Below are positions 41,301 to 44,300 of a stretch of 45,010 nucleotides of DNA, piece by piece. The DNA comes from a virus. Taxonomy: Duplodnaviria > Heunggongvirae > Uroviricota > Caudoviricetes. Position numbers: made by a program. Within the stretch, counting starts at the first letter, position 1. Every line of letters begins with the position of its first letter. The DNA lies in IMG/VR virus record IMGVR_UViG_2917870735_000003; one strand, written 5' to 3'.

Positions 41301-44300
41301 TTTTGTTGACCACTTCAACGTTGACCAGGCTGCCAGCGGCGTTGCCTACAAAGAGCGGATGAATATACCGGTAATTGCAGAACAGGTAGCCCGTGAGCAA
41401 CCGGAGAACCTGCACACCTATTTCATGGAACGGCTACGATACTGGCCGGCGTTGAATTAATCCACATGATGTGCAAGGGGCAATATCAGCATCCTCAGAG
41501 TGATGGATTGTCACCCGCGGAACAATTTTATCTGCTAGCTGTATGAAAAAACAGCAATACAACTTTTGCTGACTTTCCACCGTTAACGCGACACAACCTT
41601 TGTTCCTGGGCTTCACGTTGCAGAGCCGGTAATCTCCGTCTCTTTAAATTAAAAAGACGGAGACTATTAAAAACTCATTAAAACATCAGGAAACAACAGA
41701 TTCCCCGTAAAACGCTACAGCCTGTGCAGACTGGGAGTCCATATCATCATGGAGATCTCTGGAGTATGGGAGGGAGTTGACTGTCGATATAAATATACTG
41801 TCATTTTCTAAAGTGAAAATTTCTGATTCGAGACTACCAATATCACCACGTACAGGATTAGTCCACCCACTAAACAGTAAAAATCCCCATTCCTGAAAAA
41901 GCCCGGAATTCACTTCACGTTTTACATCATGAAACATTTCTCCCGTCAGTTCATCGAATGGGACATTATTGATATCGCGTCGTGCCGGGACAGTCCCTTT
42001 TTTATCCTCAATCCAAAACAATGCATTGTAAAATCTGTCCGACGTTGCGGTACGAGGTTTAAAGAAGCGATAAGGTTTAATTAAATAAGATGACACATTT
42101 TTCCCTGTGGCTTTATCCTTCGCAAAAATAACAAATGTTTTACCAATGCAACTTTCATCAATATCATTTGAAAATGACACCACGCCGTCCTGATTTACAG
42201 TCAGCGAATTGTCTCCCGCATTGGTGACAACACTCCAGTCCAACGTATTATTATTGACAACATCATTGTCAACCACCATCTGAAATGTCGCCCCTGGAAA
42301 TAATGTTTTCGGGAATGAACCATTAGCCATGTCTTTTTTTATATCGAAAACATGGTGGCTCACTAGAACACCGGTAATTTTTGGCATAAAAAACTCCTTA
42401 TTTGTTTAATTGAAATGCGATCAATAAATTCGATCACCAGAGAGATATTATTACTTTTACAAGAATAAATGTTGTTATTTGTTTATTATAAAACAATCAT
42501 CACCCAGAAAAGAAAAAGATGCAGCTCGTTAACAAAAACCTTTGTGGCATATTAAGGTTGTGTCGCGTTAACGGTGGAAAGTCAGCAGATAAAATTGTTC
42601 CGTGGGTGACAGCCATTACCGCGAAGGCATATTGCAAGGGGCGTTGCTTGTGGTCGATTCCTCACTCACTCCAGTTGATGGTTCGCTGCTTGTATGTGCT
42701 ATAGAGGAGGAATATCGCATAAAGAGATATCGGAAGCATCCGCGCCGCTTCAGGCGTGCGCCTTACGAGTTTGGTGAGTACATCGCGTTACTGAGCCGCC
42801 AGGATGATGCACTTGTGCGCTGGCGTATAAAATCGATCAGCAGAAAACGTTGCGGTAAGTGCGGCGAGAGAGTTCCTGTTAATTCATGCCCGTGTAATGG
42901 TGACTCACAATGCTGGGTGACCAAAGGCTGATTCGAATTTAAGAACTGAAAGAACACCAAGCCGCCTGATGGCGGTTTTTTATTGGAGACAAGAAATGTC
43001 AGATTTGGCTATGAAGATTTTGAAATGGCAATCGACTGGCGATGTTGGCATCAGTAGCGCAACTCTTGCCTCAATCGCATGTGGACTGAAAAAGAATATC
43101 TATGGTCATCACTTCGGCGCTCCACATGACGCAGCCGATTTCCGGCGATGCGTTGCGCTTGTCGAGCAGATTCCAGAAATCAGAGATTCATTCGACAAGG
43201 TTGCAAAGCGCGTTCCGGCATTCAAAGGCATCCTCAACGAATGGGATTCCCTCGTTGCTCTGTTGAAGTCTGAAATGAAGATACACGGAAACAAAGCACC
43301 AGAGACTTACAGAAGAATTAGCGAACTACGCAAGGACTAACCATGGAATCACACAGCCTCAAACCCAATGAGGCCTGTTAACCCCCCCCTTTCATTCCAG
43401 CACCGGAGAAAACAATGAGCGAAGTTAACTTAATTGTGCCCAATGACTGGGTGACAGAGCAAAAACTGATCGAAATTACAGGTTTACGCCCAGGAACCAT
43501 TGAGAGAGCACGTAAACAATCCTGGCTTGTCGGTCGTGAATATCTCCATGTTGCACCGGACGGTATTCCAAAAGAAAACAGCGAATGCATGTATAACCGC
43601 AAGGCTATCGACCAGTGGGTTGAAAGTATGTCAAAAAAACAGCCTGGTGCGCGTCGATGAAGAACCGTTTATGCTTAATACGCTCTTGGGCGTCAGGAGG
43701 GAACAATGGCTAAGACAGCATACCCAACAGGCGTTGAGAACCATGGCGGATCACTCCGCATATGGTTTATGTATAAAGGCACACGAGTACGGGAAAGTCT
43801 CGGTGTGCCGGATACACCAAAAAACAGGAAAATAGCTGGCGAGCTACGAGCGTCTGTTTGTTTTTCCATTAAGACGGGTAATTTCGACTATGCCGCTCAG
43901 TTTCCGGACTCTCCCAACCTGAGAAAATTTGGTGCGGAAAGTAAGGAAATTACCGTCGCAGACCTGGCTGAGAAATGGCTGGATCTGAAAAAGCTGGAAA
44001 TCAGTACCAATGCGATGGGGCGTTACAGCTCCATTGTAAGAAATATGGTTCCCCGAATCGGAGGCAACAGACTTGCATCTGCTGTGACCCAGGAAGAACT
44101 GCTGTTCATACGAAAGGATTTGCTGACCGGATATCATGTTCTGAAACGTGGGCAAAAAACACCCATTAAGGGACGTTCCGTGCCAACAGTTAATAACTAC
44201 ATGAACACCATGGCGGGGATGTTTCAGTTCGCAGCCGACAGCGGATACATCAAAGAAAATCCGTTTGCAGCCATTTCGCAACTGAAGAGATCACGAACGG

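Follow-up and report, generated by a model that had tools for sequence, protein, structure and literature searches.

A chimeric open reading frame in a lambdoid prophage is a mosaic of gene remnants next to IS6-family stumps

HumD of phage P1 is a UmuD′-like accessory protein of SOS mutagenesis, according to the P1 GenBank annotation and to the work listed as reference 78 in PMC4713147. The P1 module is laid out as hot, a divergently oriented lxr, a LexA box and humD. To our knowledge, no intact member of the HumD/UmuD′ family has a DNA-binding domain. Insertion sequences of the IS6 family have GG at the start of their tips, and their intramolecular transposition yields inverted copies on either side of an inverted segment (PMC7986276; PMC4471558); in classical IS6 pseudo-compound transposons the IS copies are directly repeated (PMC7986276). 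The invertible G segment of Mu, C segment of P1 and P segment of e14, driven by the invertases Gin, Cin and Pin, have inverted repeats with 26-bp crossover sites, carry tail-fibre genes and occur in both orientations in relatives.

We compared these systems with a locus situated between ea22/TraR-like genes and xis-int, outside the immunity region, in a viral sequence of 45,010 nt (IMG/VR record IMGVR_UViG_2917870735_000003; the whole stretch is called the window; Table 1). The first half of a chimeric ORF matches P1 HumD: residues 3–49 are identical to HumD residues 35–81 at 42 of 47 positions (89%; E 3e-24, tblastn), the Ser and Lys are kept, neither protein has a DNA-binding domain, and the context is the same, with a hot-like theta homologue beyond a divergently oriented middle gene. 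Unlike HumD, the ORF lacks the N-terminal 34 residues (1–34), the C-terminal 48 (82–129) and the LexA operator, has a foreign tail, and reads 'GDS' rather than 'ADS'. That tail shares with a 112-aa protein family (phrog_536) the cluster of C79, C82, C91, C93 and C99 and the position upstream of xis-int, but is without the family's N-terminal 44 residues and conserved C-terminal WHETKLxx. Like inverted IS6/IS26 pairs, the locus has a transposase 3′ end, a GG-tipped repeat and inverted copies around a passenger gene (PMC7986276; PMC4471558), but here the copies are stumps of about 160 nt and 56 nt that no longer encode a transposase and have lost their outer ends, and they are inverted where pseudo-compound transposons have direct repeats. 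The bracketed ~1-kb segment occurs, as do G, C and P, between inverted repeats and in both orientations among related prophages, but there is no invertase gene, there are no tail-fibre genes, and IS debris stands in place of crossover sites.

Table 1. Features of the locus, in window coordinates
Feature	Position	Strand	Description
hot-like remnant	41311..41439	+	DNA polymerase III theta homologue, phage P1 type; cut at ~codon 62 by left IS remnant
Left IS6-family remnant	41421..41598	+	last ~40 transposase codons and right IS end
Left inverted-repeat arm	41509..41600		92 nt: outer 28 nt, 30 nt (41537–41566), 34-nt core
LexA-box pattern match CTGTATGAAAAAACAG	41539..41554		perfect CTGT-N8-ACAG; overlaps stop codon of transposase remnant
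Hairpin	41630..41666		two 18-nt arms, 89% complementary; just downstream of passenger gene
Passenger gene	41686..42387	-	233 aa; invasin-D4-like domain (Pfam PF21764, E 1.6e-8)
AT-rich upstream region of passenger gene	42388..42553	-	homologous to upstream region of the 70%-identical homologue in L016
Right inverted-repeat arm	42554..42611		without the 30-nt piece of left arm
Right IS6-family remnant, inverted	42556..42611	-	IS tip GGTTGTGTCGCGTTAACGG begins 42556; last 11 transposase codons; 30-nt piece deleted
Chimeric ORF	42602..42931	+	GTG start, 109 aa; in ORF list
humD remnant	42608..42748	+	codons 35–81 of 129, with Ser60 and Lys97 equivalents
Deletion 1 junction	42741..42749	+	167 nt lost between imperfect direct repeats CGCGCCGCT and CGCGTCGCT
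Tail of ORF	42750..42928	+	residues 45–104 of 112-aa Cys-rich lambdoid gene (phrog_536, annotated 'transcriptional regulator')
Stop codon TGA	42929..42931	+	straddles deletion 2 junction (42930/42931)

These comparisons establish that the ORF is a mosaic of gene remnants rather than a domain architecture or a new type of peptidase, and its two halves are separate genes in related prophages. Very probably it has no function and arose as a chimera through successive rearrangements that affected the early-left (b) region in a lambdoid prophage of a cryptic Escherichia lineage. Because only about 40% of the S24 fold is left and the second protein is missing its conserved parts at both termini, we infer from sequence that the product would have no peptidase, UmuD′-like or regulator activity. 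Our verdict is ordinary prophage decay.

The layout of the 5′ end agrees with the initial annotation, which placed the start just after an in-frame stop and inside the right inverted-repeat arm: a TAA occupies 42590–42592, 42593 opens the first codon after it, the GTG is the fourth, and codons 1–3 (GTG GGT GAC) are antisense to the right IS remnant. Upstream lies a weak promoter-like site facing the ORF (TTAACG-16-TAAAAT, 42568–42595, 9 of 12 matches); the bases directly 5′ of the GTG (aaaattgttcc) contain no purine-rich run. A LexA operator (CTGT-N8-ACAG) was not found between 42388 and 42602, even allowing one mismatch, and no Rfam family matched within 41000–43500. That 109 codons stay open and that both catalytic residues are kept counts against a reading as decay. 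The exact protein is a single cluster ('hypothetical protein, Escherichia sp. E14V7') on five contigs, all from Escherichia sp., and is not conserved as a stand-alone gene in relatives, in keeping with the remnant status first proposed for it.

The first half of the ORF is a fragment of humD. Identity is 86% across the HumD proteins of P1, P7, SJ46 and RCS47, and DNA homology with P1-type humD of E. coli begins at 42604–42608. The NCBIfam HumD model (NF051876) scores 75.4 bits against a cut-off of 120, at positions 35–84 of 129 (E 3.6e-21), as compared to 221.5 bits over positions 1–129 for P1 HumD; phrog_811 is matched at positions 55–101 of 140, and Pfam Peptidase_S24 (PF00717) at profile positions 42–89 of 116, with 22.0 bits against a cut-off of 23.3 (E 1.4e-4). 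No complete S24 domain, in the sense of a match that spans the whole model and exceeds the curated cut-off, is present: 47 of the ~115 residues of the UmuD′ fold remain, and the domain is missing its N-terminal arm and ~35 residues at the C-terminus. The Ser/Lys dyad pattern reported at the outset is real, with Ser4 aligning to UmuD Ser60 and Lys41 to Lys97 (ORF residues 2–47 against residues 58–103 of E. coli UmuD, 8gmt_B). The canonical-looking 'GDS' is partly a junction artefact, since IS antisense sequence supplies its G and D and the HumD proteins of P1 and E. coli LR-28 have 'ADS'; the UmuD-like homologue of HK140 has 'GAT'.

A search of related prophages for an intact gene recovered a fuller copy, in E. 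coli LR-28, but its C-terminus is missing too. This is the most complete lambdoid copy found: it keeps humD codons 1–81, is flagged by RefSeq as 'incomplete, missing C-terminus', and begins MGFPSPAADY, the same start as P1 HumD, 100 nt upstream of the 5′ break of the ORF, with a LexA box (TACTGTGTGTATATACAGCA) upstream of the humD ATG as in P1. E. coli WAT and phage Chlobot share the 3′ break of humD and have a different 5′ break. In lambdoid relatives, then, humD is shown to end already at codon 81, and a 112-aa Cys-rich gene downstream of it stands alone.

The second half of the ORF comes from that neighbouring gene. Residues 50–109 are 97% identical to residues 45–104 of the 112-aa family (for example WP_001129736.1). 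Hundreds of prophages of Escherichia, Salmonella, Citrobacter and Klebsiella have this gene, conserved and as a stand-alone unit, and the RefSeq records of phiV10 and epsilon15 give it the annotation shown in Table 1. The match to phrog_536 (E 1.2e-47) covers only positions 43–107 of 115. A full-length member would combine basic N-terminal helices with a C-terminal G-W-H-x-x-K-L; the ORF has neither, and W105 and L110, both invariant in the family, are lost along with H106, which is nearly so. The N-terminal part of the 112-aa protein weakly resembles the LexA-regulated YbfE (NF008671, E 0.007, far below the cut-off). No solved structure of the family was found by sequence or by profile, and its AlphaFold model (mean pLDDT 60.5) was too poor for a fold search. 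The initial description of an S24 domain without a DNA-binding domain, fused to a Cys-rich tail, thus holds as regards the similarity and the cysteines (five in the final 26 residues), but the S24 part is incomplete, and the tail is the C-terminal part of the next gene rather than part of the S24 protein, which a 167-nt deletion joined to it.

Two deletions account for the present reading frame. Deletion 1, seen solely in this prophage, put codon 45 of the 112-aa gene in frame behind the humD remnant; at 42749, six related loci (L005, L008–L010, L012 and L020) have 167 nt extra (length measured against L008), and L006 has a comparable extra stretch. Deletion 2 removed 694 nt, namely the last 8 codons of the 112-aa gene, the DUF2513 gene and most of the lambda orf55 homologue, and thereby created the stop codon of the ORF; most of these related loci have 694 nt extra at 42930. 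The region is deletion-prone, as independent fusions onto the same Cys-rich tail (protein clusters P0002, P0033, P0009, P0019 and P0035) demonstrate; in P0002, found on 35 E. coli contigs, a humD stump is joined at YPRR/QDDARV.

Each inverted-repeat arm is the 3′ end of a truncated IS6-family insertion sequence. The two elements lie in inverted orientation and have taken the place of the 3′ part of the hot-like gene and the 5′ part of humD. The arms are complementary at 100% in the 34-nt core and 96% in the 28-nt outer part, a match reached in 0 of 100 shuffles. In the left remnant, transposase codons (41421–41543) end in a TGA at 41544–41546 and are followed by a terminal inverted repeat (...CCGTTAACGCGACACAACC) ending at 41598; residues 197–236 of a Serratia IS6 transposase match it at 78% identity (E 6e-17, tblastn), and this reference transposase itself passes the IS6 family transposase model NF033587 with 271.6 bits. 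At the DNA level, the left remnant is 74–84% identical to IS6-family ends on ~170 plasmid records (145 and 24 records in the 60–90% identity bands), and Yersinia plasmids hold 9–14 copies of such ends each. In the right remnant, transposase residues 226–236 match 42612–42580 on the minus strand, and the Serratia IS has matches to the tip GGTTGTGTCGCGTTAACGG at both of its ends. The arms thus retain IS6-type transposase coding sequence as well as a terminal inverted repeat tipped with GG. Neither is an intact IS, for which a ~230-aa transposase, two terminal repeats and an 8-bp target duplication would be expected; the outer ends, where a duplication would be read, are deleted, and no intact copy was found in any locus examined. 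The arm core had no matches in a metagenome scan, and neither cassette nor arms were found in E. coli complete genomes or the phage collection.

Other origins considered for these sequences were set aside. An origin of the arms from a diverged humD 5′ region or promoter was rejected, alignments to the humD 5′ regions of P1 and HK140 being no better than shuffles, and the match of the arms to IS6 ends then removed the need for it. To the left of the left arm, an inverted second copy of humD was likewise rejected: the similarity is marginal (reached by 15 of 500 shuffles) and is explained as IS transposase sequence sharing a CCATCAC..TGAGG microhomology with humD. The perfect LexA-box match in the left arm was rejected as a functional SOS operator, as it overlaps the transposase stop and is degenerate in arm type B and in the Serratia IS; by our own estimate roughly one perfect match (about 0.7) is expected by chance per window, and this one is probably fortuitous.

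Between the stumps lies a foreign gene. Its family comprises only 14 homologous clusters, almost confined to cryptic Escherichia lineages; it matched nothing in PHROG or NCBIfam and, having no similarity to P1 lxr, was rejected as a homologue of it. In L016 a 70%-identical homologue has no arms around it. The hot-like remnant beyond it is 68–76% identical in amino acids to P1 Hot (phrog_1105, E 4.5e-19), and its frame runs on to a TAA at 41458–41460 owing to truncation by the left IS remnant; PF06440 is present on the called hot-like gene in L013 and L014.

The orientation of the segment raises the possibility of a programmed invertible switch, with the sequence upstream of the ORF as one of its states and flipping changing which cassette end and LexA-box-like copy face the humD stump and the early-left transcript. 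Both orientations are indeed seen; the tree of interiors pairs the window with L010 and L017 with L019, and each pair has one member per orientation, from which we infer at least two inversions; and in L013 and L009, which have full arms, the interior flips but each arm type remains with its flank. We nevertheless regard a programmed switch as very unlikely. The arms are decayed IS6 ends rather than recombinase sites, the sole recombinase is Int, which differs between loci sharing the cassette, the LexA-box match coincides in part with the transposase stop and other arm types do not have it, and a near-identical inverted repeat of 58–92 nt suffices for occasional RecA or Red recombination. No Gin/Hin/Cin/Pin-type serine invertase was found in the window: tblastn with a Gin query gave nothing better than E 0.68, and the Y-x-R-[VC]-S-[TS]-x-x-Q motif is absent from all window ORFs of at least 90 aa. 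Very improbable, too, is that the IS6 stumps have been co-opted as a recombination-driven flip-flop by which the ~1-kb invasin-D4-like segment switches repeatedly within populations; if that were true, the passenger gene would be read with or against the early-left (pL) transcript depending on state, the sequence ahead of the chimeric ORF would change as well, and that ORF would be expressed in one state only.

We consider it highly improbable that the ORF encodes a functional small protein, a minimal HumD/UmuD′ fragment with a zinc-binding tail acting as a decoy or dominant-negative partner, for example by poisoning UmuD′2C or RecA* interactions or in prophage regulation. The open frame with its Ser60 and Lys97 equivalents, the promoter-like site and the persistence in E. 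coli of the independent, more widespread fusion P0002 are consistent with such a role, but only UmuD residues 58–104 are left, stripped of the N-terminal arm and C-terminal ~35 residues of the S24 domain; the tail is without W105, L110 and its whole N-terminal half; no purine-rich run directly precedes the GTG; the exact protein occurs in one cluster only, on five contigs; and sister prophages bear other lesions in the humD stump, including a 12-nt deletion of IEEE. On these grounds, the idea of a dominant-negative domain has little support. The proposal of a repressor gene disrupted by the cassette is correct in that the ORF is a remnant whose 5′ break is the cassette edge, but that it was the autocleavage domain of a CI/LexA-type repressor whose HTH was cut off is scarcely credible, for although S24 domains occur in CI and LexA and LexA models match weakly (E 0.2–0.6; TIGR00498, E 1e-3), the HumD/UmuD matches are far stronger, neither the ORF nor the syntenic LR-28 copy nor P1 HumD has an N-terminal HTH, and the locus lies outside the immunity region.

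Returning to decay as the preferred reading, the following order of events may be proposed. The ancestor would have had a P1-like SOS module, and in lambdoid relatives humD would have lost everything past codon 81, ahead of the 112-aa Cys-rich gene. In this lineage two inverted copies of an IS6-family element would then have come to bracket the foreign 233-aa gene, likely through intramolecular replicative transposition, and both copies would later have eroded from outside until the stumps abutted hot at codon ~62 and humD at codon 34; the humD/IS junction lies in microhomology (IS antisense GGGTGACAATCCATCAC against humD GCTGATAGCCATCAC). The 167-nt deletion between CGCGCCGCT and CGCGTCGCT would have followed, in this prophage only, and the 694-nt deletion would then have supplied the stop codon.

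Together, these findings leave the understanding of S24 peptidases and SOS mutagenesis unchanged, and they counsel caution: what looks like an S24 domain with a zinc-ribbon-like tail is here wholly the product of two microhomology deletions and an IS scar. P1-type hot/humD SOS modules reside in lambdoid prophages, where their decay has taken several independent routes; upstream of xis-int lies a hotspot for fusions of many different N-termini to one and the same Cys-rich tail; and IS6-family stumps of less than 100 nt suffice to make a segment flippable on an evolutionary scale.

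The chimeric ORF opens four codons past an in-frame TAA (42590–42592): the codon at 42593, taken as its start in the initial annotation, directly follows that stop, and the GTG comes fourth. Because the right arm of the inverted repeat spans this position (its 28-nt outer part lies at 42584–42611), the GTG falls inside the arm, and the arm coordinates agree with that earlier placement. The proposed Ser/Lys dyad was likewise recovered in an alignment run with E. coli UmuD, in which Ser4 and Lys41 of the ORF correspond to the catalytic Ser60 and Lys97. Against Pfam Peptidase_S24, the ORF scored 22.0 bits over profile positions 42–89 of 116, slightly lower than the cut-off of 23.3 bits; its S24 similarity is genuine, yet partial. 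In membership tests, it was assigned neither to the complete S24 domain nor to phrog_536, the family of its Cys-rich tail.

A tblastn search of phage genomes with the first 52 ORF residues returned humD of P1, P7, SJ46, RCS47 and D6 (82–86% identity), followed by the UmuD-like genes of HK140, N15, HK639, phiKO2 and BTP1 (60–71%). Residues 35–81 of P1 HumD (129 aa) align to 42608–42748 with 42 of 47 residues identical, and the NCBIfam HumD model, whose cut-off is 120 bits, gives 75 bits over positions 35–84 of 129. According to the P1 annotation, HumD functionally complements UmuD' and a LexA site precedes humD; the primary reference for HumD is McLenigan et al. 1999, number 78 in the reference list of PMC4713147. 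The ORF had been suggested to be the remnant of a repressor gene disrupted by the cassette. In outline this holds, as it contains a humD stump whose 5' break is the right-arm edge (DNA homology to humD starts at 42604–42608). The repressor identity does not hold: the nearest matches are HumD/UmuD-like, a family that never has a DNA-binding domain and so has none to lose, and a repressor fragment is therefore ruled out. E. coli LR-28 retains humD codons 1–81 with a LexA box (TACTGTGTGTATATACAGCA) upstream, and its 3' break is identical to that of the window, so the 3' truncation is old and shared; the 5' truncations vary among lineages.

When E. coli genomes were compared with the window, matching began only at 42741. 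In these genomes and in phage Chlobot, the tail sequence belongs to a gene of its own, encoding 112 aa, that follows a humD stump; in RefSeq the stump is marked incomplete and named 'DNA repair protein' or 'S24 family peptidase'. The initial annotation had proposed to inspect related genomes for an intact gene; a search with the 109-aa ORF recovered the exact protein only once (cluster P0001, Escherichia sp. E14V7, 5 contigs). A few fusion products aside, the other matches span just 57–69% of the query and are proteins of 112 aa from Escherichia, Salmonella, Citrobacter, Klebsiella and Raoultella. The tail family is phrog_536 (annotated 'transcriptional regulator', E 1.2e-47), of which the ORF spans positions 43–107 of 115 only. 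Across 35 aligned members, C79, C82, C91 and C99 are invariant and C93 is near-invariant; the conserved C-terminal GWHETKL of these members is missing from the window ORF. For the 112-aa family we found no Pfam match and no solved structural relative; its N-terminal half resembles the LexA-regulated YbfE below threshold only, and its AlphaFold model, with a pLDDT of 60, is too weak for use.

Two deletions joined and closed the ORF: firstly, sister prophages (L005, L008–L010, L012 and L020) carry an extra 167 nt between 42749 and 42750, where L006 has a comparable additional stretch, and the deletion endpoints are imperfect direct repeats (CGCGCCGCT and CGCGTCGCT); since its length is not divisible by three, this loss puts both original reading frames in register. 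Secondly, compared with E. coli WAT and L005, the window lacks 694 nt at the junction 42930|42931; this deletion took away the eight 3'-terminal codons of the 112-aa gene together with a DUF2513 gene and the bulk of a lambda orf55 homologue, and it created the TGA stop of the chimeric ORF. The last codons of the orf55 homologue survive out of context at 42932–42967. Deletions and fusions recur in this region, a hotspot where many unrelated N-termini have ended up on the same Cys-rich tail in public genomes (see table); P0033 is joined at an FGEYI motif common to the tail gene and the homologue of window ORF 40588–40797.

Features of the hot/humD locus, tail fusions in public genomes and orientation of the bracketed segment
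Feature	Position or loci	Strand	Description
Chimeric ORF	42602-42931	+	GTG start, 109 aa
P1 hot-like remnant	41311-41439		DNA polymerase III theta homologue; lambdoid prophage
Left IS6-family stump	41421-41598		
Right IS6-family stump	42556-42611		
Fusion P0002			Another humD stump + tail, different junction; 35 E. coli contigs
Fusion P0033			Homologue of window ORF 40588-40797 (phrog_926) + tail; 73 contigs
Fusion P0009			Ea22-like N-terminus + tail
Fusions P0019, P0035			Further N-termini on Cys-rich tail
Passenger gene, window orientation	window, L013, L017	opposite to int	
Passenger gene, other orientation	L005, L008, L009, L010, L012, L020, L019	same as int	

The two arms of the inverted repeat share an outer part of 28 nt (41509–41536 and 42584–42611, 96% complementary) and a core of 34 nt (41567–41600 and 42554–42587, 100%); matching of this kind would not be expected to arise by chance. 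An origin as diverged humD 5' sequence was tested and rejected. A plasmid search revealed that 41461–41600 is 74–84% identical to IS6-family right ends on about 170 records from Serratia, Yersinia, Klebsiella, Salmonella and Pantoea, some Yersinia plasmids carrying 9–14 copies of the element. The Serratia transposase, which passes NF033587 (271.6 bits), matches 41421–41540 with its residues 197–236 (78% identity, E 6e-17) and the minus strand of 42612–42580 with residues 226–236. The inner arm ends (41598 and 42556) are formed by a GG-tipped terminal repeat, GGTTGTGTCGCGTTAACGG, similar to both ends of the Serratia IS; GG tips are a hallmark of the IS6 family (PMC7986276). The plasmid IS ends, the transposase matches and the GG tip show the arms to be stumps of two inverted IS6-family copies, their transposase 3' ends pointing inward; no intact copy was found in any locus examined. 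Intramolecular replicative transposition is known to leave a segment flanked by inverted IS6 copies (PMC7986276, PMC4471558), and it may have produced the pair in the window. The IS|humD junction lies inside a microhomology (IS antisense GGGTGACAATCCATCAC versus humD GCTGATAGCCATCAC), so ORF codons 1–3 (GTG GGT GAC) are IS antisense; the resulting 'GDS' motif stands where P1 and LR-28 HumD have 'ADS'. A perfect CTGT-N8-ACAG (CTGTATGAAAAAACAG) at 41539–41554, within 30 nt unique to the left arm, overlaps the transposase stop codon of the left stump, and both the other arm type (CTGCATGAAAAGCCAG) and the Serratia IS carry a degenerate form of it; about one perfect match per window is estimated by chance, and this LexA-box pattern is probably fortuitous.

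The left stump cuts the hot-like gene at about codon 62. In P1 the order is hot, lxr, LexA box, humD; with a truncated hot-like gene on one side and a humD stump on the other, the ancestral locus therefore paralleled this arrangement. Together, the two remnants reveal a former P1-type hot/humD SOS module between the ea22/TraR-like genes and xis-int, its middle now replaced by the 233-aa passenger gene with an invasin-D4 domain. In the early-left region of the prophage, between exo and the TraR-like gene, is a gene for a 354-aa protein in which a DndB-like domain is annotated (38229–39293, +; PF14072, as precomputed for L014); it may be tied to defence or anti-defence.

Loci with the arm core were drawn from IMG/VR, NCBI genomes and one metagenome contig. 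Across these related prophages, which belong to cryptic Escherichia lineages and to E. whittamii, the IS-bounded ~1.1-kb segment (41509–42611) occurs in both orientations relative to its hot and humD flanks. L013 and L009 have both arms at full length, and between them only the interior changes direction, each arm type keeping to its flank. The interior tree (distances over 524 nt) is ((window, L010), (L017, L019)); since each pair holds one locus per orientation, at least two inversions are needed. The simplest explanation is occasional homologous recombination across the 58–92-nt repeats, or earlier events with intact IS copies. The idea that the segment is a programmed switch has no positive support; no invertase gene was found in the window, and the integrase is not the same among loci having the cassette.

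Near codon 18, the passenger gene has an A7 run (42335–42341, T7 on the + strand), which is A8 in L005, L008 and L009, shifting the frame of the 5' end and leaving an internal ATG; this could be sequencing error or slipped-strand variation. An invasin-D4-like paralogue, 43% identical, lies at 29448–30122 (+) without flanking IS arms. In L016 (region 3501–5534; GCA_005781135.1, Escherichia sp. E3659), a 70% identical homologue with a similar upstream region and no arms directly precedes a protein of 424 aa that has a Scabin-like (DNA ADP-ribosyltransferase toxin) domain, with an integrase adjacent, a neighbourhood hinting at a toxin as a possible partner of the invasin-D4-like protein.

For the chimeric ORF a function is unlikely, and a decoy-type role is highly improbable. 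The ORF itself is real, and its seeming architecture results from prophage decay: a doubly truncated humD stump took its start codon from IS antisense sequence, an in-frame deletion fused it to the truncated tail of the neighbouring gene, and another deletion provided its stop codon.
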